A DNA stretch of 64,000 nt, taken from the NCBI GenBank assembly GCA_001785865.1, contig MFUZ01000003.1, positions 15,048-79,047 of the forward strand, read 5' to 3'. Positions 5,492 through 16,227 of this stretch are shown here, in pieces (positions within the stretch are counted from its first letter, which is position 1; each line of letters opens with the position of its first letter). The notes beneath the pieces were generated by a model. The model searched no databases and was not told the DNA's origin. It saw nothing but the letters and a program-made list of their open reading frames with translations. Origin of the DNA: Candidatus Nomurabacteria bacterium RIFCSPLOWO2_01_FULL_41_18 (GTDB lineage Bacteria > Patescibacteriota > Minisyncoccia > Phycocordibacterales > UBA9973). The translations under genes were made by a program, and so were the position numbers.

Positions 5492-7156
5492 ATGGAGCAA
5501 AAAATTAAAAATTGGATAAAAGAAATTTTAAAGATCGAAGGGGATTTTGTTTTAGTGCATCCAAAAGATATAAAAAATGGCGACTATACTTTCATTTCAT
5601 CTTTAGAAAAACCAGCAGAAGATTTAGAAAAATTAAAAAAAAATAAATTGGTAGAAATAGAAAAGATAGAAATGGTAGGTAGATTTATAAATTTATATTT
5701 GTCACGAAAGTTTTTTGCTTCGAGTGTGGAAGAAATTTTAAATCAGGGAGGAAATGTTGGTAAAAATGACTTCTTTACCGGAAAGAAAATAATGATTGAA
5801 TATACCGACCCGAACCCTTTCAAACCTTTTCACATTGGGCATTTGATGAGTAATGCTATAGGTGAATCTATTTCGCGACTTATGGAATTCTCTGGCGCAG
5901 AGACATCACGAGCAAATTACCAGGGCGACTTGGGGCTTCATGTAGCTAAAGCCATATATGGTCTTTTGCAAAATGAGAAATTGCAAGCAAAAATTGGTTC
6001 TCATAATCTGCAAGCAGAAAACATAGGGCGGGCTTATGCCTTCGGTGCTGAAGCATATGAAATCGACAAAAAAGCTAAAAAAGAAATTGATAAAATAAAT
6101 AAAAAACTTTACGACAAAAAAGATAAAAAAATAATTGAGATTTATGATTGGGGTTTCAAGGTGACGATGGATGCCTTCCAAGATTTGTACGAAACTCTTG
6201 GCACAGAATTTGATTTTTATTTCTTGGAGAGTCAGATGGCACCGATTGGAGAACAAATTGTTCGTGCAAATACTGGTAAAATTTTTGAAAAATCTGATAA
6301 CGCCATAGTATTTAAGGCTGAAAAGTATGACCCGAAGCTTCATACCAGAGTTTTCATTACCAGTGAGGGCTTACCTACTTATGAGACCAAAGAGCTTGGC
6401 TTGGCTGAAGAGAAGTTTAAAACAGAACCAAACTTGGATTTGTCCGTTGTTGTCACTGCAAGTGAACAAATGGATTATATGCGTGTTGTTGCCAAAGCCA
6501 TTTCTTTGATAAATCCAGAACATGAGAAAAAAATGAAACACATTACGCATGGCATGATGCGTCTTTCAAGTGGCAAGATGAGTTCTAGGAAGGGGAATGT
6601 TGTTACAGGTGAATCACTTCTGAATGATGTTCGCGATGCAATTTTAGAAAAAATGACGGATAGAGAATTCTCAAATGAAGAAAGAGAGCAAGTGGCTTCT
6701 AGTGTTGCTGTGTCTGCCATAAAATATTCAATATTAAAACAAGGGATTGGTGGAGATATTATTTATGATTTTGAAAATTCTATTTCTTTTGAAGGGGATT
6801 CTGGTCCATATCTGCAATATTCTTTTGCGCGTGCAAATTCAGTTCTAGAAAAAGCAAAGAAAGAAAATATTTTGCCCGACCCGCATGCTTTTCCTGCTGA
6901 AACCTTTGAAGTAGAAAAATTATTATACAAATTTCCCGAAATTGTTTTACGTTCTGCAAAAGAATACGAACCGCATTATATCGCGAATTATTTGATAGAA
7001 GTCGCCCGCGCGTTCAACAGTTTTTATGGCAATAATTTAATTATAGATAAAAAAAATAAAACTTCTTCCTACAAAGTAGCTCTCACTTTTGCTTTTACGT
7101 TTGTAATGAAAAGTGGTTTGCACCTCCTTGGCATCAAAGCTCCAGAGAAGATGTAG
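5492..7156 (+). CDS. argS: arginine--tRNA ligase
   Basis: Class I HIGH motif (PFHIGHLMSNAIGES), ArgRS-like N-terminal domain, an MSSRKG segment and a DALR-type anticodon-binding C-terminus. ATG at 5492, directly after the dut stop. Confidence 0.85.
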   Translation: MEQKIKNWIKEILKIEGDFVLVHPKDIKNGDYTFISSLEKPAEDLEKLKKNKLVEIEKIEMVGRFINLYLSRKFFASSVEEILNQGGNVGKNDFFTGKKIMIEYTDPNPFKPFHIGHLMSNAIGESISRLMEFSGAETSRANYQGDLGLHVAKAIYGLLQNEKLQAKIGSHNLQAENIGRAYAFGAEAYEIDKKAKKEIDKINKKLYDKKDKKIIEIYDWGFKVTMDAFQDLYETLGTEFDFYFLESQMAPIGEQIVRANTGKIFEKSDNAIVFKAEKYDPKLHTRVFITSEGLPTYETKELGLAEEKFKTEPNLDLSVVVTASEQMDYMRVVAKAISLINPEHEKKMKHITHGMMRLSSGKMSSRKGNVVTGESLLNDVRDAILEKMTDREFSNEEREQVASSVAVSAIKYSILKQGIGGDIIYDFENSISFEGDSGPYLQYSFARANSVLEKAKKENILPDPHAFPAETFEVEKLLYKFPEIVLRSAKEYEPHYIANYLIEVARAFNSFYGNNLIIDKKNKTSSYKVALTFAFTFVMKSGLHLLGIKAPEKM

Positions 7157-7176
7157 TTACGTAATCGATTACGTAA
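7157..7176. repeat. Perfect 20-bp palindrome TTACGTAATCGATTACGTAA spanning the stop codons of two convergent genes
   Basis: Exact reverse-complement symmetry. The argS stop is TAG at 7154-7156; the stop of the minus-strand gene (TTA on plus) lies inside the palindrome at 7169-7171. Related to the TACGTAA palindromes at 8054, 9714 and 11871. Confidence 0.7.
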
Positions 7177-7834
7177 TTTGCGAATCTAGATACAAATTTC
7201 CATCGTGTGCTAATTTAGAAACATAGCCAGTATAAGTTTGTGGGCTATTATCTTTTTGTAGTTGAGCGATCAAATCTTCCAAACGAAAGTCACTAATATC
7301 AAATTGTGCTTCTTCTAAAATTGACTGAATGTTTTGATCGAGACGAACATCGTTTGTTATTCTTTGAATCCTTAAAGTTTCTATACCTTCTTTTTGGTGG
7401 GTATATCCTCCTTTTTTCAAGAGTACATGATTTTTTTCTACGAATTCAAGAAAATATAAAACATCTTTTTCTAAAAATTCAAGCACAAAATGCATACCGA
7501 CAAAATCGTATTTCTTTTGTTTAAGTTTTTCTACTACTAAAGTAGATTTAAATCCGTTTTTCTTTAAAAGAGCCAGTGCGACAAGCGTCAGATCACTACA
7601 TGGGTTCATAAATCCGGTATCTCCGTCTGCGAGGATTTGTTCCGCATTTCTTTTTACAAATTTTTCAGCAATCTCTTCATTGCTCCATTGTTTTCTTTTA
7701 ACTCTCTCATTTATCCATAAAACCAGGCTATTTATTTTCTGCTCAAGATTGCCTTCAAACGTTTCCAGACTACTTTCATCAAAAGTGCTTGGTTTTGCCC
7801 TAGTTAGAGGAATATTTGGTCCTTTATTTTCCAT
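7169..7834 (-). CDS. hypothetical protein (a transglutaminase-like Cys fold is possible but weak)
   Basis: 221-aa ORF with no strong family motif. GFMNPCSDLTLVALALLKKNGF resembles the Cys region of transglutaminase-like proteins. Confidence 0.4.
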   Translation of the reverse strand: MENKGPNIPLTRAKPSTFDESSLETFEGNLEQKINSLVLWINERVKRKQWSNEEIAEKFVKRNAEQILADGDTGFMNPCSDLTLVALALLKKNGFKSTLVVEKLKQKKYDFVGMHFVLEFLEKDVLYFLEFVEKNHVLLKKGGYTHQKEGIETLRIQRITNDVRLDQNIQSILEEAQFDISDFRLEDLIAQLQKDNSPQTYTGYVSKLAHDGNLYLDSQIT

Positions 7835-7880
7835 GGGATTGTATAGATAATAATATCACAAAATCTGGTATAATATTTTT

Positions 7881-8060
7881 ATGCAAGAAGAAACAAAACA
7901 AAAGTTCGGAGAACATTATATTTGCCTTGGGGGCTGTAGGGGAGTTTCCAAAGTTCCCGGTGCCTGCAATTCGCCTAGTTGCGTAAATCACAATCACAAA
8001 CTCGTGAAGTGCAATTGTACAGATGGTTTGCATAACAATTTTGAACTCTTATTACAATAA
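7881..8060 (+). CDS. possible leaderless Cys-rich micro-protein (59 aa)
   Basis: Below the 60-aa track cutoff. The ATG at 7881 lies 7 nt after an extended -10 (TGGTATAAT, 7866-7874). 8 Cys and 4 His (CLGGCRGVSKVPGACNSPSCVNHNHKLVKCNC). Its stop sits inside palindrome copy A. Confidence 0.25.
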   Translation: MQEETKQKFGEHYICLGGCRGVSKVPGACNSPSCVNHNHKLVKCNCTDGLHNNFELLLQ

Positions 8061-8090
8061 GTACGTAATGTATTACATAATACATTGTTT
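8054..8090. repeat. Palindromic repeat copy A (ACAATAAGTACGTAATGTATTAC-ATAATACATTG)
   Basis: Shares AATAAGTACGTAATGTATTAC with copies at 9714 and 11871. Imperfect inverted symmetry; lies just upstream of the helicase gene. Confidence 0.65.
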
Positions 8091-8119
8091 TTGCAAATAC
8101 GTAGTACAATGCTTGAGCC

Positions 8120-9718
8120 ATGACTCAAGATCAAGCATTGAATATTTTAAAAACTGGTGCTAATGTTTTTCTCACTGGCGAGCCGGGAGCTGGTAAGACG
8201 CACACAATAAATAATTTTGTGAATTATTTGCGTGCTTGTGATGTTGAGCCGGCTATTACAGCTTCTACGGGCATCGCGGCGACGCATATCGGTGGGATGA
8301 CCATTCATTCTTGGAGTGGTATAGGCATCAAAACAAAACTAGATAAATATGATTTGGACAAAATTGCTAGCAGTGAATATGTTGTGAGGCGTGTTAATCG
8401 CACGAGGGTTTTGATTATAGATGAGGTTTCAATGTTGTCGGAGAATATGCTCAACATGATGGATGCTGTTTGTAGAGAAATAAAACAAAATAGCCAGCCG
8501 TTTGGTGGGATACAGATTATTTTGGTTGGTGATTTTTTTCAGTTGCCGCCAATTGTGAAAAAGGACTTTATAGACGAAAAACAGAATTTGCTTATTAAAA
8601 ATATTGTGAAAAATAACAGTTTTGCATATGAATCAGGCGCATGGGAACGTGCACGACTAATTGTTTGTTATCTTTCTGAACAACATCGCCAAGATGATGC
8701 TGATTTTCTGTCTGTACTGGGAGGAATACGAGCCAATAATTTTTCGCAATCACACAGGAATCACATAAATACTAGAAAAATTAATTTAGATAGTCAGCCT
8801 GCGAATATTACAAAACTTTTCTCACACAATGTGGATGTGGACAAAGTAAACAATACTGAACTTGTAAAATTAGACGCAGAAGTAAAATCATTTAAAATGT
8901 CTGGAAGTGGAAATGATAAAATAGTTGAAACGCTCAAGAAAGGATGTTTGTCACCAGAGAATTTAGAACTCAAAATAGGTGCTGTGGTGATGTGTACCAA
9001 AAATAATCCAAAAGAAAGATTTGTGAATGGCACTCTTGGTAAGGTGACGGGCTACGAAGAATTTAGTGGAAACCCGATTATTAAAACCAAGAATGGACGG
9101 AATATTGTTGTTGCGCCTATGGATTGGACAGTGGAAGAGAACGGTAAAATTCGCGCGCAAATAACTCAAGTTCCGCTTCGATTGGCTTGGGCTATCACAG
9201 TGCACAAGAGCCAGGGGATGAGTATGGATGCGGCGGTGATGGATCTCTCGCAAGTGTTTGAATTTGGGCAGGGGTATGTGGCACTTTCCCGAGTGCGCAG
9301 ACTCTCTGGACTTTATTTGCTTGGCATAAATGAGCATGCGCTCAAAGTGCATCCAGAAATTTTGAAAAAAGATATTGATTTTAAAAACAAGTCGCAAGAA
9401 GCTGTGCAAGTTTTCGGTAAAATTCTGGAAAATGATTTAAAAAAGATGCATGATGATTTCGTGGTGGCTTGCGGAGGGAAGGTGGGGAATTTATCCACCC
9501 CGACGCAAGCGTCACCCCTCAAGAGGGGAATTAAAAATGGATTTGCTGAAATCAGAGAGAAACATCCGAACGCATACAGGCCATGGAACAAAGAACAAGA
9601 CGAAGAACTTAGCAAATTATTTATTTCCGGTTTTAAAATACCAGACCTAATGAAAAAATTTGGCAGAAAAAGGGGAGGGATTTCTGCAAGACTTGAAAAG
9701 CTTGGGTTGGTGAAATAA
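8120..9718 (+). CDS. PIF1/RecD-family 5'-3' DNA helicase (AAA_30 + C-terminal helicase domains) with an extra ~90-aa C-terminal tail
   Basis: Walker A (LTGEPGAGKTHT), Walker B (LIIDEVSML), QLPPI, and a C-terminal ITVHKSQGMSMD with GQGYVALSRVR — the PIF1 signature arrangement. Tail: PWNKEQDEELSKLF...GGISARLEKLG. Confidence 0.8.
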   Translation: MTQDQALNILKTGANVFLTGEPGAGKTHTINNFVNYLRACDVEPAITASTGIAATHIGGMTIHSWSGIGIKTKLDKYDLDKIASSEYVVRRVNRTRVLIIDEVSMLSENMLNMMDAVCREIKQNSQPFGGIQIILVGDFFQLPPIVKKDFIDEKQNLLIKNIVKNNSFAYESGAWERARLIVCYLSEQHRQDDADFLSVLGGIRANNFSQSHRNHINTRKINLDSQPANITKLFSHNVDVDKVNNTELVKLDAEVKSFKMSGSGNDKIVETLKKGCLSPENLELKIGAVVMCTKNNPKERFVNGTLGKVTGYEEFSGNPIIKTKNGRNIVVAPMDWTVEENGKIRAQITQVPLRLAWAITVHKSQGMSMDAAVMDLSQVFEFGQGYVALSRVRRLSGLYLLGINEHALKVHPEILKKDIDFKNKSQEAVQVFGKILENDLKKMHDDFVVACGGKVGNLSTPTQASPLKRGIKNGFAEIREKHPNAYRPWNKEQDEELSKLFISGFKIPDLMKKFGRKRGGISARLEKLGLVK

Positions 9719-9756
9719 GTGCGTAATGTATTATGTAATATATTACGTAACTTTAG
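9714..9756. repeat. Palindromic repeat copy B (AATAAGTGCGTAATGTATTATGTAATATATTACGTAAC)
   Basis: A degenerate version of copy C with 3 transitions. Starts at the helicase stop codon. Confidence 0.65.
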
Positions 9757-9830
9757 TAGAAAAATAGACTGGATTACGGCATGACTGGAAAAGCATGGAT
9801 TGGGATAGTATTTTACCATTACGAAATTGC

Positions 9831-9859
9831 TTGACATTTTATATAAATGGGTATATACT
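9831..9859 (+). promoter_or_regulatory. Near-consensus sigma70-type promoter upstream of the GHKL ATPase gene
   Basis: TTGACA (9831-9836), 17-nt spacer, TATACT (9854-9859). Followed by two copies of TTGGTGGCA..GCTATCGAGG at 9887-9915 and 10007-10030. Confidence 0.45.
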
Positions 9860-10041
9860 TTTTATATTATTAATTTAATTATAGTTTTGGTGGCACTTTA
9901 GGGTGCTATCGAGGCTTTCAAAAATTTATGACTACTTGATATATATTTGGTTTGCAGGAATATTCTGTATTTCTGCGTTTTTAGCTGTTTATTAACTAAT
10001 AAGTCTTGGTGGCAAAAGCTATCGAGGTAAAGAATAAAAAT

Positions 10042-11583
10042 ATGGAAACAATAAAATACAACAAAGAAAACACACCAAACGCTGCTAAATTAATGGAATC
10101 TCTTAGGTATAGTGGTTATGACAACAATATTGCAATAGCTGATCTTATAGATAACTCACTTGACGCTAATGCTACAAATATAAACATTGAAATAAATCTA
10201 GATTCAAAAAAAGAAGAGCATATCGTTATAATAGATGACGGTTCGGGTATGGACGAGGAAACACTAGGACAGGCTCTTCGTTTGGGCTCTATTACTCATC
10301 GAAATGTGGAATCAGATTTAGGTAGATTCGGTATGGGAATGGTAACCGCTTCTATTTCCATAGCAAAAAGAATTGAAGTATTTACCAAACAGAAAGACAA
10401 ACCAATGCTTACCAGCATTATGGATCTTGAAGAAATGGCAAAAAGTAACAACTTCAATGTTTATAGGGAAAAATCTACCTCAGAAGAAATTAAATTTGCT
10501 AAACATCGTGGACTTGAAGATTCCGGAACTATTTTGGTATTAAGAAAATGTGATAAATTAACGAAATCAGGTGTTGTAGAATTTACGGACTCTCTTAGAA
10601 AAGATGTTGGAGAGACTTATCGTTATTTCTTAAGATCTGGTAAAAAAATTACAATAAATAATAAGTTAGTGGAAATTGTCGATCCAATGTGGACGGACGG
10701 AGGACTCACAAAGGAATACAAACAAAAGTCGGAAATCTTCAGTGATGAAAGATATGAAATAAAAATCGATGGCGCAGACAGCAAAGAGTCTTTTGCAGTT
10801 AAAATTTATGTTCTTCCGCAATTTGACCAAAGTGTAATGCGAAAATTAAAAATCAATGTCAAGAATCAAGGGTTTTATATTTTAAGGAATTATAGACAAA
10901 TATCTAAAGCAGATCATTTGGGTGGATTATGGGAACAACACAATGATCTAAACCGAGTCAGGGTAGAGGTAATATTTTCTGGAACGTTAGATTCGGCTAT
11001 GGGAGTTAATTACACAAAGCATAATATAAAACCAATACAAGCTATAGTGGATAAGTTTCAAAGTGACATCATGCCTCAGATTGACACTCTTAGAAAGAGG
11101 TTCAAAAAGGATACAAAAAGAGAGTCAGCAAAAGACCTGAATTTTTCTGAAGCAGAAAGAATTATTTCACAGAAAAATAAATTACTAGATAAAGCTGAAC
11201 CAGATAAAAAGGGTAAACCTACTCCTATAAATCCAGTTGTAAAAAGACCGAAAACGAAAGTTGAGGAAGAAGTAATAAAAAGAGGAAGACCCAGTTTGGC
11301 ACACCTTGCGAGATTTGAATCACATAGTTTTGGTCTGACTGGCCCTATTTTTGAAGTTGAAAAACAGGGCAAAATTACTATTATTCAATGGAATATCGAT
11401 CATCCTTTTTACGAAAGATTTCTTATAGAATATAAAGATAATATAGATCTGGTAAATGCTGTATCATTTCTTGCTTACTCTCTTGGAGAATCAAAACTAA
11501 AATATAGTAGCGATGAAACCTACGAGATGTTGGAAAACATTATGAGTACCATCTCTACAAATTTAAGGGTATTATTAAGTTAA
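10042..11583 (+). CDS. GHKL-superfamily ATPase (HATPase_c_3 / MORC-like 'paraMORC' type), 513 aa
   Basis: Bergerat-fold motifs: N-box ADLIDNSLDA, G1 IIDDGSGMD, G2 GRFGMGM, G3 GTILVL, followed by YRYFL...ITIN..V...DPMW, typical of MORC/MutL-like ATPases. The track start at 10006 is a TTG; the ATG at 10042 has a GAGGT 13 nt upstream. Confidence 0.7.
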   Translation: METIKYNKENTPNAAKLMESLRYSGYDNNIAIADLIDNSLDANATNINIEINLDSKKEEHIVIIDDGSGMDEETLGQALRLGSITHRNVESDLGRFGMGMVTASISIAKRIEVFTKQKDKPMLTSIMDLEEMAKSNNFNVYREKSTSEEIKFAKHRGLEDSGTILVLRKCDKLTKSGVVEFTDSLRKDVGETYRYFLRSGKKITINNKLVEIVDPMWTDGGLTKEYKQKSEIFSDERYEIKIDGADSKESFAVKIYVLPQFDQSVMRKLKINVKNQGFYILRNYRQISKADHLGGLWEQHNDLNRVRVEVIFSGTLDSAMGVNYTKHNIKPIQAIVDKFQSDIMPQIDTLRKRFKKDTKRESAKDLNFSEAERIISQKNKLLDKAEPDKKGKPTPINPVVKRPKTKVEEEVIKRGRPSLAHLARFESHSFGLTGPIFEVEKQGKITIIQWNIDHPFYERFLIEYKDNIDLVNAVSFLAYSLGESKLKYSSDETYEMLENIMSTISTNLRVLLS

Positions 11584-11592
11584 AAAAAATAT

Positions 11593-11841
11593 ATGATGTC
11601 AAAATGTACATGTAATAGTTTCAGATTTGAGCTAAAAGAAGCCTCTCCTGAAAATTCTAGATATAAATTTTATTTCATTCAATGTGCATTATGTGGAAAT
11701 CCGATTGGAGTTACGGATTATTATCATACACATACAGCGATAGAAGCTATGAAAAAAGAAATTGAATCTAAGATAAGAAATATAGAGTCAAGTCTTGTAA
11801 ATATCGAACATTCATTAAGAGCAATTACTAATAAGCAATAA
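11593..11841 (+). CDS. small zinc-ribbon plus coiled-coil protein (82 aa), partner of the GHKL ATPase
   Basis: CTC...CALCG Cys pairs, then a heptad-like C-terminus (EIESKIRNIESSLVNIEHSLRAI). Starts 9 nt after the ATPase stop. Confidence 0.5.
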   Translation: MMSKCTCNSFRFELKEASPENSRYKFYFIQCALCGNPIGVTDYYHTHTAIEAMKKEIESKIRNIESSLVNIEHSLRAITNKQ

Positions 11842-11864
11842 AAGAATTAATAATTCTTTTCATT
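11841..11864 (+). terminator. hairpin plus T-tract after the Zn-ribbon gene
   Basis: AAAGAATTAATAATTCTTT, a near-perfect palindrome, followed by TTTC. Confidence 0.4.
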
Positions 11865-11870
11865 CCATGC

Positions 11871-11911
11871 TACAATAAGTACGTAATGTATTACGTAATA
11901 CATTACGTAAC
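11871..11911. repeat. Palindromic repeat copy C; contains a perfect 30-bp palindrome TACGTAATGTATTACGTAATACATTACGTA (11880-11909)
   Basis: Exact reverse-complement symmetry checked base by base. 5' flank ACAATAAGT and 3' flank ACGTAAC are shared with copies A and B. Confidence 0.75.
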
Positions 11912-11914
11912 TAA

Positions 11915-12091
11915 ATGCCTACACAAAAACTTATAAATCAAAATGTTCGGAAGATAACCAAACTTGGCGGGAAGTCTTTAGCTGTGACTTTGCCTAGAGA
12001 ATTGGTGACAAAGCTCGGATGGAAAGAAAAACAAAAAGTGACAGTCAAAAGAGTCCGAGGCGGGTTGCTGATTAAAGATTGGAAGAAATAG
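11915..12091 (+). CDS. AbrB/MazE/SpoVT-family swapped-hairpin DNA-binding protein (58 aa), antitoxin-like
   Basis: Not in the ORF track (<60 aa). MPTQKLINQNVRKITKLGGKSLAVTLPRELVTKLGWKEKQKVTVKRVRGGLLIKDWKK; G.S..VTLP.ELV..LG...GD.V is the AbrB-family core. The ATG is 5 nt after palindrome C. Confidence 0.55.
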   Translation: MPTQKLINQNVRKITKLGGKSLAVTLPRELVTKLGWKEKQKVTVKRVRGGLLIKDWKK

Positions 12092-12099
12092 ATAAAACT

Positions 12100-12690
12100 T
12101 GCATTTTTAACATAGCCGTGCTATGGTGTTGGCTGTTCGTTCTTAGTTTTTAGTGTTCTTAACCTCACAACCAACAACCAAACTGCAGTAGTTTTTGTTT
12201 CTTATGACCAAAATAGCAATATGGGAGTCACATCCCATCTTTTCGGAGGCAGTAGTCTCGTTAAAAACCGAACTTCCACTGTGTCACTTGTGGCACATGT
12301 ATGCCATAGCATGGAAGTGTGTCGTAAATGTTGCTGAGTACGGGCCGGCTTTAAGAAGCCTAAACCCGGACGAGCTCGATATGTACGATTTTCATGAGGT
12401 GGCACTTGGTCAGGTTGGAGTTCAACTTGATCAGGCTTCACAGAAAACACGGGATTACCGGTGTCTTCTCTTGATTTACAGCATCAATGTCGAGGTTTCA
12501 ACTTTGGTGACCCACTTCTTGGCGTCCATCGTCCGGCATCTGCAAGCAATCACACCCCAGCTTGCAACAAACAAATAAGGGGGATCAATTTCACGAAGCC
12601 GTGGCCAATAAAGGTCCACGGTCTTCTCTTTTTTAGGGCAAAAAAATAGAATAAAAAAGTGTAAAAACAGATATTTTGTGCTAAAATCAG
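12100..12690. ncRNA. GC-rich (~50% against an AT-rich surround) region with no credible ORF: candidate structured RNA of unassigned class, possibly an ileS leader or a standalone ncRNA
   Basis: The composition jump is sharp. ORFs overlap on both strands (12195-12578 plus; 12202-12450 and 12476-12742 minus) and none looks protein-like. Multiple local hairpins, for example CGTGGCCAATAAAGGTCCACG. I could not convincingly place RNase P, tmRNA, SRP or T-box signatures. Confidence 0.3.
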
Positions 12691-12696
12691 GCAATA

Positions 12697-15600
12697 ATGG
12701 CTGAAAACGAAGAAAACAATCCCGTGCGAAACAACGGTTCACAAAGTGAACCTGTTTCTAACGGGACAAGTAAAAAAAGTGAAGTAGCTTTAAGAGAAGA
12801 AAAAGTTCTTGAATTTTGGCATAAAAATAAAATTTTTGAAAGGTCTTTGGAGAAAAAATCCCCAAAGGGACGCTACGTTTTTTATGACGGCCCCCCCTTT
12901 GCCACGGGGCAGATTCATTATGGACATATTTTAGGCAGTACGGCGAAGGATGTCATCGGCAGATATCGGACTATGCAGGGATACTATGTGCCGAGGAAAT
13001 GGGGGTGGGATTGCCATGGTTTACCGATTGAAAATATAGTTGAAAAAGAATTAGGCATCGCCGGCCACGTCGAGATTGAAAAATACGGAATTGATAAATT
13101 TGTTGAATACGCGAGGAGTAAGGTTTTGCAGTACGACAAGGATTGGGAAAAGGGAATCGAGCGAATTGGACGCTGGGTGGATTTTCAAGGTGGGTATAAA
13201 ACCATGGATAATACCTTCATTGAATCCGTCTGGTGGGCATTGTCTGAACTTAATAAAAAAGATCTTATTTATGAAGGTGTGAGAGTGCTGGCCTATTGTC
13301 CGAGATGCGAGACGCCTATAGCCAACTCTGAAATCGCGATGGATAACAGTTATAAAGATATTTCCGATATTTCGGTGTACGTAAAATTTGAATTGGAAGA
13401 TGAACCGGGGACATATCTGCTCGCTTGGACGACGACCCCGTGGACTTTGCCAGGCAACACAGCTATCGCCATAAATAAAAATATTGTCTATGTGAAGGTG
13501 AAAGTCGAAAATGACGTGATTATCCTTGCCAAGGATACCCTATCAAATGCTCTTAAAAACAAAGAATATTACTTGCTCGGGGAAATCAAGGGGGAAGGAC
13601 TCATAGGCAAGAGATATATCCCGGTTTTTCCATATTATCGAACTTCAAATGAAGCTCAGAGTAAAAACATTTGGAAAGTGTGGCATGCGGATTTTGTGAC
13701 CGCGGATCAAGGTACAGGTCTGGCCCATGAAGCGCCGGCATTCGGTGAAGACGATATGAATCTCGCGAAGCAAAATAATATTCCTTGGATAATTCATGTT
13801 GATGAAACCGGAAAGTTCAAAAAAGAAGTTTCAGATTTCGCTGGGTTGCTAGTGAAACCAAAATCGTCCGAAAAAGACGGCCATCAAAAATCCGACATTG
13901 AGGTAATAAAATACTTGGCAAAAAATAATTTTCTCTTTGCTAAAGAGAAAATAATCCATCCCTATCCGCATTGTTATCGATGTGAAACGCCGATCATATA
14001 TTACGCGTTGCCTTCTTGGTTTATTAACATTCAAAAAGAAAAAGAAAATATTCTCACACAAGGGAGGAGTCTCAACTGGATTCCAGCTCATTTGAAAGAG
14101 GGAAGATTTAAAAATATCTCAGAGAATGCTCCAGACTGGAATATCTCAAGAAACCGCTACTGGGCGAGTCCGTTGCCTATTTGGAAGTGCGACAAATGCA
14201 AACAAAAAACCTTCGTCAGTTCTCTCAAAGATTTAAAAGAAAAAACAAAAAAATCCGGCAATAAATATTTTGTGATGCGACATGGGGAGGCAATGTACAA
14301 TGCCAAACACCTTGATGATCCAAAAGGAGATCCCGACAATCATTTGACAAAGCAGGGCGAGGGTGAGACGGTTGCGGCCGCGAAAAAATTAAAAAGCGAA
14401 AAAATCGACATTATATTTTCTTCTCCATTTTTGCGCACCAGGGAAACGGCGGAAATTTTAAGGCGTGAACTTGGCTTCGGAGAAGAGCAATTGATTATAG
14501 ATGAAAGATTGCACGAGATAAACGAAGAGGACCAAAATTTGGTGGCTAAAAGAATGGGTGATTTCATTTATAGTACAGAAAAAAAATTTCAAGGGAAAAA
14601 TATTATTGTGATTTCACATGGCAATCCCATTTGGACCTTGCAAAGGATTGTGGCCGGCGTACCGCATGCCGATTTTTCAGAAAAACAAATGTTGAATACG
14701 GGGGAGGCCGAAGAATTGAATTTCATTCCATTTCCCCACAACGCAAATTATGAGCTAGACTTGCACCGGCCGTACATTGATCAAGTTCCTCTCGTGTGTA
14801 GTTGTGCTGGCAGTCTAACGCGTATACCAGAAGTGTTGGATTGTTGGTTTGAATCTGGTTCGATGCCTTTCGCGCAAGATCATTATCCGTTTAAAAATCT
14901 AGAATGGAAAAAAAATAATTTTCCGGCAGCTTTTGTCGCTGAATACATAGCTCAGACAAGAACTTGGTTTTATTATACCCACGTAGTATCTGCAATACTT
15001 TTCAAACAGGCACCTTTTAAAAATATTGTGACGACCGGGACTTTGCGCGCAGAAGACGGAGAAAAAATGTCCAAATCCAAAAATAATTATCCAGATCCTT
15101 GGATTTTTATAAATAAATACGGCGTCGATGCGCTGCGTCTTTACCTGATGTCTTCAACTCTGATGAAAGGCGAGGATGCTAATTTCTCGGAAAAAGCAGT
15201 GCAAGACATTGCCACTAAAATAATCGGGCGACTTTTTAATGTTTTTGCCTTTTATGAAATATATCGAAATAAAACACTGGAAAAAAATGACAAACCTAGG
15301 TCAAAAAATGTTCTAGATATTTGGATCTTGTCTAGATTTGAGCAAATTTTAAATGAAATTACCAAAGGGATGGAAAATTATGATTTGGCCGAAGCGACCA
15401 GGCCAATAGATTTATTTGTGGATGATCTTTCTACTTGGTATTTGCGTCGTTCACGAGAGAGGATAAAAGAAGAGGCCGCAAACCCCGCCAGGGAGGACGG
15501 GGCAAGGCAAACTTTATATTTTGTTCTAAAAACGCTTTCAAAACTTATGGCCCCTTTTGCGCCTTTTACTGCAGAGGATATTTGGCTTAAATTGAGGACT

Positions 15601-16227
15601 GGCTACGTTCCAGTGGACGGTACGCGGCATGATTTCGCTAAATCAGATGCAGAAAGTGTGCATCTAGAAAATTGGCCCAGTGTGTCAAGGGGCATCTTTG
15701 ACATTTTTGGAAATGGAAAGAGTAAAGTTCTGGAAGAGATGTTAATAGCTAGAGAAATTTGTACAATTGGAAATGCTGAAAGACAGAAAATTAATATTCC
15801 TGTGCGTCAGCCATTACAAACACTCTTAATTAAAGATGCAGCATTTAATCTAATATCAAAAAATAATCAAATATTAAATTTGATTAAAGAAGAGTTAAAT
15901 ATAAAAAATATAGTTTTCGATAATTCAGTAAAAAAGGGGAATAAGAGCATAACTTTGGATACGAATATCACTCCAGAATTAAAACAAGAAGGGGATTATA
16001 GGGAGCTGGTACGAGCACTACAAGATATGCGTAAAAAGATGGGGTTGACGCCTAGCGATGTAGTAAAAATTGTACTTGACACTAATGAGACAGGACAAAA
16101 ATTAATAGAAAAATTTGCGTCAGATTTAAAAAAGACTGTTCTTGTGTCTCAAATTAAATTTGAAAATAACGATGGGCAAGAAGTGAAAATAGATGATTTA
16201 AATTTCAAAGTTAAGATAGAAAGATAG
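12697..16227 (+). CDS. ileS: isoleucine--tRNA ligase with a histidine-phosphatase (PGAM-like) domain inserted between its zinc-knuckle Cys pairs
   Basis: HIGH (PFATGQIHYGHIL), WNISRNRYWASPLP, EVLDCWFESGS and KMSKSKNNYP. 1176 aa against a typical ~920-1050. The insert (residues ~520-700) carries the RHGE catalytic motif, SSPFLRTRETAEI and VISHG, and is bounded by CDKC ... CSCAG. Confidence 0.85.
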   Translation: MAENEENNPVRNNGSQSEPVSNGTSKKSEVALREEKVLEFWHKNKIFERSLEKKSPKGRYVFYDGPPFATGQIHYGHILGSTAKDVIGRYRTMQGYYVPRKWGWDCHGLPIENIVEKELGIAGHVEIEKYGIDKFVEYARSKVLQYDKDWEKGIERIGRWVDFQGGYKTMDNTFIESVWWALSELNKKDLIYEGVRVLAYCPRCETPIANSEIAMDNSYKDISDISVYVKFELEDEPGTYLLAWTTTPWTLPGNTAIAINKNIVYVKVKVENDVIILAKDTLSNALKNKEYYLLGEIKGEGLIGKRYIPVFPYYRTSNEAQSKNIWKVWHADFVTADQGTGLAHEAPAFGEDDMNLAKQNNIPWIIHVDETGKFKKEVSDFAGLLVKPKSSEKDGHQKSDIEVIKYLAKNNFLFAKEKIIHPYPHCYRCETPIIYYALPSWFINIQKEKENILTQGRSLNWIPAHLKEGRFKNISENAPDWNISRNRYWASPLPIWKCDKCKQKTFVSSLKDLKEKTKKSGNKYFVMRHGEAMYNAKHLDDPKGDPDNHLTKQGEGETVAAAKKLKSEKIDIIFSSPFLRTRETAEILRRELGFGEEQLIIDERLHEINEEDQNLVAKRMGDFIYSTEKKFQGKNIIVISHGNPIWTLQRIVAGVPHADFSEKQMLNTGEAEELNFIPFPHNANYELDLHRPYIDQVPLVCSCAGSLTRIPEVLDCWFESGSMPFAQDHYPFKNLEWKKNNFPAAFVAEYIAQTRTWFYYTHVVSAILFKQAPFKNIVTTGTLRAEDGEKMSKSKNNYPDPWIFINKYGVDALRLYLMSSTLMKGEDANFSEKAVQDIATKIIGRLFNVFAFYEIYRNKTLEKNDKPRSKNVLDIWILSRFEQILNEITKGMENYDLAEATRPIDLFVDDLSTWYLRRSRERIKEEAANPAREDGARQTLYFVLKTLSKLMAPFAPFTAEDIWLKLRTGYVPVDGTRHDFAKSDAESVHLENWPSVSRGIFDIFGNGKSKVLEEMLIAREICTIGNAERQKINIPVRQPLQTLLIKDAAFNLISKNNQILNLIKEELNIKNIVFDNSVKKGNKSITLDTNITPELKQEGDYRELVRALQDMRKKMGLTPSDVVKIVLDTNETGQKLIEKFASDLKKTVLVSQIKFENNDGQEVKIDDLNFKVKIER

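Follow-up and report, generated by a model that had tools for sequence, protein, structure and literature searches.

The window analysed here is a 64,000-nucleotide (64-kb) stretch of contig MFUZ01000003.1 from Candidatus Nomurabacteria bacterium RIFCSPLOWO2_01_FULL_41_18 (assembly GCA_001785865.1, forward-strand positions 15,048 to 79,047), and all coordinates below refer to it. At 10042–11583 on the plus strand it encodes a 513-amino-acid (aa) ATPase of the GHKL superfamily, preceded by the gene of a PIF1-family helicase and followed by that of an 82-aa zinc-ribbon (Zn-ribbon) protein. The original prediction combined the three genes into a single undescribed defence or DNA-transaction module. 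We consider it probable that the ATPase is a MORC of the kind linked to restriction and that it is carried by a self-contained mobile cassette lying between core genes, with the helicase as a bystander and the Zn-ribbon protein as an independent neighbour.

A bacterial MORC-family ATPase

Sequence and modelled fold both place the 513-aa protein among the bacterial GHKL ATPases of the MORC family. It matched the Pfam family HATPase_c_3 with 100 bits (cut-off 25, E = 1.5e-28). The Bergerat motifs listed in the original prediction (ADLIDNSLDA, DDGSGMD, GRFGMGM, and GTILVL) were all found in its sequence, and motifs I–IV of the GHKL superfamily are present, namely the N-box DxxDNSxDA, DxGxG, the GxxGxG lid, and GT. 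Across 40 homologues, D34, D37, N38, D41, D65, G67, G69, G94, G97, G99, G162, and D171 were invariant and T163 was nearly so. Since these homologues share the initial M-[ED]-T-I-K, ATG 10042 is the likely start codon and is favoured over TTG 10006.

An AlphaFold2 (AF2) model was built from the 40 homologues, with a predicted local distance difference test (pLDDT) score of 82.7. In this model, the GHKL domain occupies approximately residues 1–200 and is followed by an S5/transducer domain (200–330), a 45-residue helix (333–377), a disordered, basic, Lys-rich linker (390–420), and a C-terminal domain (421–513). The C-terminal region of about 350 aa, which had been described as unrecognisable, is resolved into the last four of these parts, the final one being an HtpG/Hsp90-like domain of about 90 aa. 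This α/β domain (11302–11580, plus strand) has three strands and three helices and carries a conserved WNxDHPFY. Its nearest fold is the C-terminal dimerisation domain of HtpG, and by analogy it is probably a constitutive dimerisation domain.

The best PDB sequence matches of the ATPase were MORC2, MORC4, and MORC3. The top Foldseek matches were the ATPase modules of MORC2/3/4 (E about 1e-16, about 400–420 aligned columns), with Hsp90 and TRAP1 ranked below them, and the label "MORC-like" therefore holds. MORCs have been defined by an S5 signature motif, GhXhhpXXRhl (Iyer, Abhiman & Aravind 2008, PMC2292703). Residues 277–287 of the ATPase (GFYILRNYRQI) fit this motif at 10 of the 11 positions, the exception being a Q/E where "h" is expected, and G277, R282, N283, and R285 were invariant among the homologues. 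The GHKL domain is followed, as in MORCs, by an S5-fold transducer with a conserved basic residue, the invariant K326. The ATPase thus has the GHKL and S5 architecture and the S5 signature motif of eukaryotic MORC2, MORC3, and MORC4. It differs from them in sequence (13–16% identity), in having neither a CW zinc finger nor coiled-coil insertions, in having Asp for Glu at the catalytic base, and in its C-terminus, which is an Hsp90-like domain instead of coiled coils.

Distant homologues of the ATPase on plasmids were 25–27% identical to it over 98% of its length. They are encoded in operons of the order dcm, vsr, ATPase, HNH, DEAD/DEAH helicase, EcoRII_N, which is the layout of the SWI2/SNF2-type MORC operon (PMC2292703). 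The S5 motif of these homologues, GFYVYREGRLI, fits at 11/11 positions. The plasmid MORCs and the window ATPase have in common a PxxxxLxxLRxxGY box at the N-terminus, an Asp at the position of the catalytic base, the S5 motif GFY..R..R.I, and the C-terminal NxxHxFYQK domain. Because full-length homologues in MORC operons share the N-terminal box, D34, the S5 motif, and the C-terminal domain, the window protein is assigned to the bacterial MORCs.

The ATPase did not fall into other GHKL families. Like MutL and Hsp90/HtpG, it combines a GHKL domain, a transducer, a flexible linker, and a C-terminal dimerisation domain, but it missed every curated cut-off by a wide margin, which sets it apart from ordinary MutL, Hsp90, and sensor kinase proteins. 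The MutL models TIGR00585/PRK00095 scored 20–32 bits (cut-offs 180–937) and matched only 50–90 N-terminal residues, and the C-terminal endonuclease/dimerisation domain of MutL is absent. None of the Hsp90 family hidden Markov models (HMMs) matched. The best match in both PADLOC and NCBIfam was MzaB of the MZA anti-phage system, which aligned with residues 18–295 (the GHKL domain and part of S5). However, the score against NF041932 was 99.5 bits (cut-off 850), the C-terminal half was unmatched, and PADLOC found no other Mza component among the scanned neighbours. An N-terminal GHKL ATPase with a role in defence or restriction also occurs in the GHKL-fused Shedu protein VcSduA (PMC12137116) and in the GHKL restriction enzymes of the BbrUII/HgiDII type. 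VcSduA and BbrUII/HgiDII have a fused PD-(D/E)xK nuclease, whereas the window ATPase has none; the BbrUII/HgiDII model scored 52.8 bits (cut-off 550), and no nuclease HMM matched, so that the protein is not a GHKL-nuclease fusion of the Shedu type I-D, paraMORC3, or BbrUII/HgiDII kind. The HMM searches and the fold, including the non-nuclease fold of the C-terminal domain, thus bear out the earlier remark that the ATPase contains no nuclease domain. When PADLOC was run on the whole block, no system model fitted. There were only partial single-protein matches (MzaB for the ATPase and a generic RecD/PDC helicase for PIF1), and none for the 82-aa protein or for a 221-aa protein encoded upstream of PIF1.

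The idea that the system is of an undescribed kind has to be given up. Bacterial MORCs in restriction-modification (R-M) operons were already defined computationally by Iyer, Abhiman & Aravind (2008, PMC2292703), and a superfamily 2 (SF2) helicase, a nuclease, and a methylase were found in about 70% of MORC neighbourhoods (PMC2292703). What is new here is minor: the conserved leader of the ATPase gene, a Zn-ribbon family (phrog_9414) with a SIR2 association, and operator arrays of AbrB type. The protein is a clean minimal bacterial MORC of 513 aa with an Hsp90-like dimerisation domain; a nuclease is neither fused to it nor encoded next to it. The eukaryotic MORC chromatin silencers are presumed to descend from bacterial MORCs, and a compact solo member with a leader of its own would be a convenient entry point.

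A mobile cassette with a structured leader

The spacer between the PIF1 and ATPase genes is 323 nt long (9719–10041). The original prediction had placed a PIF1-family helicase directly upstream of the ATPase. The helicase is indeed upstream, but it is not tightly adjacent, as the spacer holds a promoter and a leader. The promoter (TTGACA-17-TATACT; 9831–9859, plus strand) is of the σ70 type and near consensus, with 11/12 matching positions, and is the best match within 7000–12800. Its TTGACA box was unchanged in 10 aligned upstream regions of close ATPase homologues. The 180–210 nt before the ATPase start were conserved at the DNA level with nine homologues in unrelated contexts: identity was 88% over 181 nt at locus L009, 77% over 211 nt at L001, and 73–74% over about 212–221 nt at L011, L023, and L025. 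Past the ATPase stop codon, the loci of close homologues had nothing in common. Therefore, the moving unit consists of the promoter, the leader, and the open reading frame (ORF), approximately 9831–11583 (about 1.75 kb).

The leader contains four elements on the plus strand. A 15-bp, G·U-rich hairpin (HP1, 9883–9916), obtained with RNAalifold on nine leaders, pairs a UUUU with a Shine-Dalgarno-like GAGG box. It is followed by a three-codon upstream ORF (uORF; ATG ACT ACT TGA, 9928–9939), which in the alignments reads M-x-T(-x)-stop in all close homologues. A terminator-like hairpin with a U-run (9954–9982), detected in a terminator scan, is a candidate attenuator, and its CAGAAA..UUUCUG stem and T5–8 run were retained in 9/9 leaders. 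A second hairpin, HP2 (10003–10028), is a paralogue of HP1 and is predicted to sequester the GAGG (10024–10027) located 14 nt upstream of the ATPase ATG.

The two paralogous hairpins are conserved as structures. Across the nine leaders, 96.6% of the cells of HP1 and HP2 were paired, versus 36–50% when the partners were slid by 1–3 columns. Five pairs showed compensatory changes, and none of 500 shuffles reached the covariation score. This covariation is suggestive and not conclusive, because the nine leader sequences are few and related. The minimum-free-energy (MFE) fold of the single sequence (z = −4.65) also contained HP1, HP2, and the terminator hairpin. The abundance of G·U pairs points to a structure formed by the sense-strand RNA. 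The paired motif TGGTGG..ATCGAG occurred solely upstream of this ATPase subfamily in the 5.6 Mb scanned, and Rfam scans of the window and the leader gave no family match for the leader. Together with the upstream regions of L001, L008, L009, L011, and L021–L025, the stretch 9883–10028 is a candidate new cis-regulatory RNA of an attenuator- or thermometer-like type.

The hairpins presumably resemble fourU-type RNA thermometers. With these and with attenuator leaders that sequester the Shine-Dalgarno sequence, the leader shares G·U-rich hairpins whose U-run pairs with the ribosome-binding GAGG, and it likewise has a uORF and a terminator. Unlike fourU-type elements, it matches no Rfam family and has two paralogous hairpins with invariant stems, and this invariance suggests recognition by a protein. 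The leader suggests that the ATPase is conditionally expressed.

Upstream of the promoter lies a degenerate duplicate of about 55 nt of the PIF1 3' end (9755–9811, plus strand). It aligned with the genuine 3' ends of PIF1 in L189, L119, and L156, including the bases after the stop codon, and is parted from the live PIF1 3' end by one TTACGTAA repeat. Judged from the alignment, it looks like the scar of an insertion or rearrangement.

Distribution and neighbours of the ATPase family

At least 690 members of the ATPase family were found in the protein database; almost all are about 500 aa long and can be aligned end to end. Among 185,579 species genomes (one genome per species), there were 167 relatives, patchily distributed over Patescibacteria, Acidobacteriota, Clostridia, Verrucomicrobiota, Proteobacteria, Ignavibacteria, Chloroflexota, and others. 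Relatives were also found on seven viral contigs and 54 plasmids. Even proteins 80–89% identical to the window ATPase have their genes at sites that differ from genome to genome. The sites of close homologues include positions after MreC, before rplJ, beside a Fic gene, and beside a C5 methylase with or without MutH-like, Vsr, and serine recombinase genes.

Family members are mostly encoded alone, and all-versus-all clustering of the neighbours at 80 ATPase loci gave no conserved partner. Iterative searches within 6 kb of the ATPase at these 80 loci found a C5 methylase at four, an N4/N6 methylase at eight, a Dam-like methylase at five, a MutH-like gene at six, a serine recombinase at eight, and a tyrosine integrase at seven. 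These genes are concentrated close to the ATPase, with the more distant parts of the same loci as a control. Methylase ORFs occurred at 4.7 per 100 kb at 0–2 kb versus 0.5–1.5 at 4–10 kb, five of the six MutH-like genes were within 2 kb, and 16 of the 18 recombinases were within 4 kb. With the plasmid R-M operons, this enrichment bears out the suggested tie of the family to restriction and to mobile contexts. The combination of SF2 helicase, nuclease, and methylase is a contextual criterion that does not define the MORC family by sequence; it is absent from the window, occurs at a minority of family loci, and is complete in the distant plasmid homologues.

Similar to the prokaryotic R-M MORCs (PMC2292703), the family has spread laterally and patchily, and some members lie beside C5 methylase, Vsr, MutH-like, and HNH genes. 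Unlike the MORCs of R-M operons, the window ATPase is solo and is accompanied in the 64 kb by neither a methylase nor a nuclease nor an SF2 helicase. Its subfamily in the candidate phyla radiation (CPR) differs further in forming a cassette of promoter, structured leader, and ORF, and most family loci have no R-M neighbours.

Other partners were confined to subsets of the loci. At five, the ATPase gene is translationally coupled to a gene for a protein with Sigma70_r4, RNA polymerase α-CTD, and HARE-HTH domains. At four loci, a second GHKL gene and a gene for a 277-aa protein are upstream of the ATPase and an HNH_2 endonuclease gene is downstream. These four loci, from Acidobacteriota/Chloroflexota (L058, about 7.3–12.5 kb, and L053, L054, and L078), encode the second GHKL ATPase (593 aa), the 277-aa protein, the MORC, and the HNH_2 endonuclease, and the four-gene block of the L058 type resembles the operons of MORC, paraMORC1, and HNH mentioned in PMC2292703. 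In the clostridial loci L085, L090, L092, and L095, a conserved protein of 64–85 aa is encoded 6–14 nt downstream of the MORC gene. In most of these proteins, a single transmembrane helix is predicted and the motif QNFNTGxxYxDVEKIAExVV is present; they are a different, lineage-specific small partner.

PIF1 and the core gene block

The PIF1-family helicase of superfamily 1B (SF1B; 532 aa, 8120–9718, plus strand) is a core gene of the lineage and only a neighbour of the ATPase. It matched Pfam PF05970 with 120.8 bits (cut-off 25.9, E = 8.4e-35) and Pif1_2B_dom with 30 bits (cut-off 23.9), and its family assignment is thus clear. We surveyed its context by tblastn at 80 metagenomic loci with PIF1 orthologues of 56–84% identity. 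An arginyl-tRNA synthetase (ArgRS) gene was upstream at 30 of the 80 loci, mostly ending about 15–50 nt before the PIF1 start, and an isoleucyl-tRNA synthetase (IleRS) gene was downstream at 19, in 10 of them within about 50–320 nt. The ArgRS-PIF1-IleRS block is often extended by a dUTPase gene and an HD-domain gene. Neither the ATPase nor the 82-aa gene was present at any of the 80 PIF1 loci, and PIF1 was present at none of the 80 ATPase loci. Searches with tblastn, jackhmmer, and profile HMMs found PIF1, the Zn-ribbon protein, and the 221-aa protein near no other ATPase locus. PIF1 is a bystander outside the mobile element.

In the window, the block is broken at two points, between ArgRS and PIF1 by the 221-aa gene and between PIF1 and IleRS by the ATPase cargo, which comprises the ATPase gene, the 82-aa gene, a gene for a 58-aa AbrB-type protein, and about 600 nt of non-coding DNA. 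The same two junctions hold other cargo elsewhere, such as a serine recombinase island in L113, and they therefore behave like hot spots of insertion. The 221-aa ORF (7169–7834, minus strand) is flanked by two TTACGTAA arrays and had no match in Pfam, NCBIfam, PADLOC, or PHROGs. In relatives, ArgRS and PIF1 are only about 15 nt apart at this position.

The 82-aa Zn-ribbon protein

The 82-aa protein (11593–11841, plus strand) has a four-Cys Zn-ribbon and a coiled coil, belongs to a phage-associated family, and is a strain-specific neighbour of the ATPase. The gap of 9 nt between the ATPase stop codon and its ORF was given exactly in the original prediction, and the two Cys pairs (C5/C7 and C31/C34) and the C-terminal helix were likewise confirmed, with the four Cys conserved in the family. 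A word-seeded search returned only the protein itself, suggesting an orphan, but this was overturned by an exhaustive HMMER search (E ≤ 1e-3) that found 296 homologous representative clusters, mostly of 65–95 aa. The core pattern of the family is SKCxxC...FELxE..P.GS.FK..FVQC..CG.PVGV, followed by a coiled-coil tail. Of 45 members, 43 matched phrog_9414, a family without known function, and 10 matched a rubredoxin-like Zn-ribbon family.

A relationship with Lar/RalR was considered and set aside, the similarity being weak. Seven of the 45 relatives matched the Lar family (Pfam PF14354, cut-off 28.6 bits) weakly (best E 2e-4) and the window protein did not match it, whereas E. coli RalR itself scored 53.5 bits. 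The hhalign comparison of the family with E. coli RalR/Lar gave 51% probability over 33 columns, in the Zn-ribbon core alone. The family does resemble the phrog_9414 and Lar/RalR proteins in its four-Cys Zn-ribbon and in its presence in early regions of prophages and in defence islands.

Five further contexts of Zn-ribbon members were examined, and none contained a GHKL gene. One is a phage-like contig. In another (L198, 6001–7358), an 82-aa member lies upstream of a SIR2_2 gene with a gap of 0 nt, in an island with an SNF2/PLD helicase gene, an MmeI-type methylase, and AbiGi; the Zn-ribbon and SIR2 genes of L198 may form a two-gene defence unit. The remaining members lie beside IS1595 and a P63C-domain gene, 8 nt upstream of an unannotated 123-aa gene, and among metabolic genes. 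Members were also found on 15 viral contigs, some of them in lysogeny-control regions, in a scan that used a subset of the family alignment. The family profile found no member at the other ATPase loci (80 genome loci, seven viral loci, and six look-ups making 13 loci), and thus the juxtaposition is specific to this population, in which 10 or more contigs, drawn from several samples, retain the 9-nt junction. By these relationships, the 82-aa gene is a passenger from an independent, phage-associated family and lies outside the conserved cassette. Small leads of their own are the conserved leader of the ATPase and the phrog_9414 family, one member of which adjoins SIR2 in a defence island.

Proposed mechanism and alternative explanations

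In E. coli, MutH and Vsr are the nucleases activated by MutL. Some members of the ATPase family adjoin genes of this kind (MutH-like and Vsr), and these nucleases are also discussed in PMC2292703. We propose that the ATPase would be a constitutive dimer held together by its HtpG/Hsp90-like C-terminal domain, and that, on binding of ATP, its N-terminal GHKL gates would close, similar to those of MORC, MutL, and Hsp90. The protein would then act as an ATP-driven DNA clamp, aided by its Lys-rich disordered linker. Complete systems of the family would comprise a C5 methylase and a MutH-like, Vsr, or HNH nuclease, with or without an SF2 helicase. In such systems, the MORC may behave like MutL: as a matchmaker, it would license or position a separate nuclease on DNA without the cognate cytosine methylation. 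The leader, with two hairpins that sequester the Shine-Dalgarno sequence, a uORF, and a terminator, probably holds expression off. Since there is no nuclease or methylase gene within 64 kb, the window copy is an orphan or solo MORC, which would work with unlinked partners or by clamping alone.

Several points weigh against this picture. The position of the catalytic base is an invariant Asp, D34, in place of the Glu of eukaryotic MORC, MutL, and Hsp90, and ATPase activity is therefore an assumption. The dimer and the clamping are both carried over from relatives, and the searchable literature yielded no experimental work on a bacterial MORC. The window contained no nuclease, methylase, or recombinase, and R-M genes were not found within 6 kb at about three quarters of the family loci, so that the link with R-M is a minority association combined with homology to the plasmid operons. 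In addition, the 9-nt junction between the ATPase and Zn-ribbon genes could be functional.

This last point leads to an alternative in which the MORC ATPase and the 82-aa protein truly belong together as a two-gene unit of this strain. The 82-aa protein would then serve as a sensor or adaptor, as a Lar/RalR-like modulator of a nuclease or of restriction, or as an antidote to the ATPase, and the Zn-ribbon would plug into different effectors, MORC here and SIR2 elsewhere. The genes are on the same strand, 9 nt apart, with no promoter or terminator between them, and the pair is retained in at least 10 contigs of this population. The member abutting SIR2_2 in L198, the weak Lar matches of seven relatives, and an unrelated 69-aa Zn-ribbon protein encoded 38 nt downstream of the ATPase at L029 are also consistent with such a unit. 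However, the pairing occurs once among all of the ATPase loci surveyed and in one of six Zn-ribbon contexts, the conserved cassette reaches no further than the ATPase stop codon, the Zn-ribbon family occurs mainly in phages (phrog_9414, 15 viral contigs), and the similarity to RalR/Lar is confined to the Zn-ribbon core. We therefore regard the two-gene unit as doubtful. More doubtful still is a bolder form, in which the solo MORC, switched on via its RNA leader, would silence or exclude foreign DNA as a clamp and would have recruited the phage-derived Zn-ribbon into a minimal two-gene immune unit. If it were true, the solo MORC would be a prokaryotic counterpart of eukaryotic MORC silencing in the ultra-small genomes of the CPR, and the Zn-ribbon/coiled-coil protein would be an adaptor that partners SIR2 effectors elsewhere.

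It is very unlikely that the ATPase is a housekeeping factor of small-genome bacteria, a substitute for MutL or Hsp90 in DNA repair or chromosome organisation, and not a mobile or conflict gene. Most family members stand alone among ordinary genes, their architecture is MutL- and Hsp90-like including the dimerisation domain, and the window has no nuclease or methylase. A housekeeping gene would be hard to reconcile with only 167 relatives scattered across the phyla of 185,579 species genomes, with insertion sites that vary among close relatives, with the lack of the ATPase in the closest PIF1-syntenic genomes, with the enrichment of recombinases and R-M genes within 2–4 kb, and with members on plasmids and viral contigs. 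To the three-gene system of PIF1, MORC-like ATPase, and Zn-ribbon we give almost no credence. Its genes are adjacent and on the same strand, helicases are typically linked to bacterial MORCs (PMC2292703), and TTACGTAA-type repeats lie on either side of PIF1 and of the ATPase, which could mean shared AbrB-type regulation. However, PIF1 belongs to the dUTPase-ArgRS-PIF1-IleRS synteny in related genomes without the ATPase, where 15–200 nt part it from the flanking genes, the two genes met in neither set of 80 loci, and the Zn-ribbon is found at no other ATPase locus. Moreover, the helicases associated with MORCs are of SF2 (PMC2292703; plasmid operons) and not SF1B PIF1, the ATPase has a promoter of its own (9831–9859), and no PADLOC model fits. 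The proposed module is thus withdrawn, and with it a false lead is removed. Of the readings considered, the mobile MORC cassette is the one we adopt.

Repeat arrays and other features of the region

The TTACGTAA-type repeats form four arrays, at 7157–7179 (S1), 8061–8083 (S2), 9719–9753 (S3, directly after the PIF1 stop codon), and 11879–11913. The array unit is a palindrome with a 12-bp period, TTACGTAAT-NN-A. They hold every copy of the repeat in the 64-kb window, all within 7157–11913, against a chance expectation of about 0. The 221-aa gene, PIF1, and the pair of ATPase and 82-aa genes are each enclosed between arrays. The fourth array follows a promoter on the plus strand (TTAATA-18-TACAAT): in the promoter and repeat scans, promoter and array together span 11847–11913, and the array, three 12-bp TTACGTAA units resembling a palindromic operator, begins just after the TACAAT −10 box and ends immediately before the gene of the 58-aa protein (11915–12091, plus strand). 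This protein is a DNA-binding protein of the SpoVT/AbrB type (MazE-like) and matched Pfam PF04014 (MazE_antitoxin) with 39.6 bits (cut-off 24.7, E 5.1e-10). No toxin partner was recognised downstream of it.

Orthologues of the AbrB-type gene were found in L113, L118, L139, and L178, with TTACGTAA directly upstream in the first three, and L113 has an identical 33-nt array 5' of the gene. Going by this arrangement, the 58-aa protein likely binds the TTACGTAA arrays. The arrays are probably copies of its autoregulatory operator in neighbouring junctions; alternatively, they are the ends of small insertions. The repeats were considered as a link between PIF1 and the ATPase and rejected, as in relatives the array goes with the AbrB-type gene, and other ATPase loci lack it. 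The TTACGTAA repeat also had six matches on viral contigs.

Between the AbrB-type gene and IleRS is a stretch of about 560 nt (12095–12660) with a G+C content above that of its surroundings and no convincing ORF. Its RNA fold on the plus strand had a z-score of −3.3, and a hairpin with a U-run lies near 12600–12635, just before the IleRS promoter. Rfam gave nothing credible for the spacer at 12.1–12.65 kb. A gene remnant was rejected, as there was no Pfam match, no phage BLAST match, and no tblastx likeness to the regions after the AbrB-type gene in relatives. The stretch may encode a non-coding RNA or represent the decayed remains of a gene.

The IleRS downstream (1176 aa, 12697–16227) carries an inserted histidine-phosphatase domain (His_Phos_1, with the motif RHGE). 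Similarly, positions 1–320 of L001 encode a related class-I tRNA synthetase with a NUDIX insertion. Such domain insertions are unusual for the tRNA synthetases of these bacteria.

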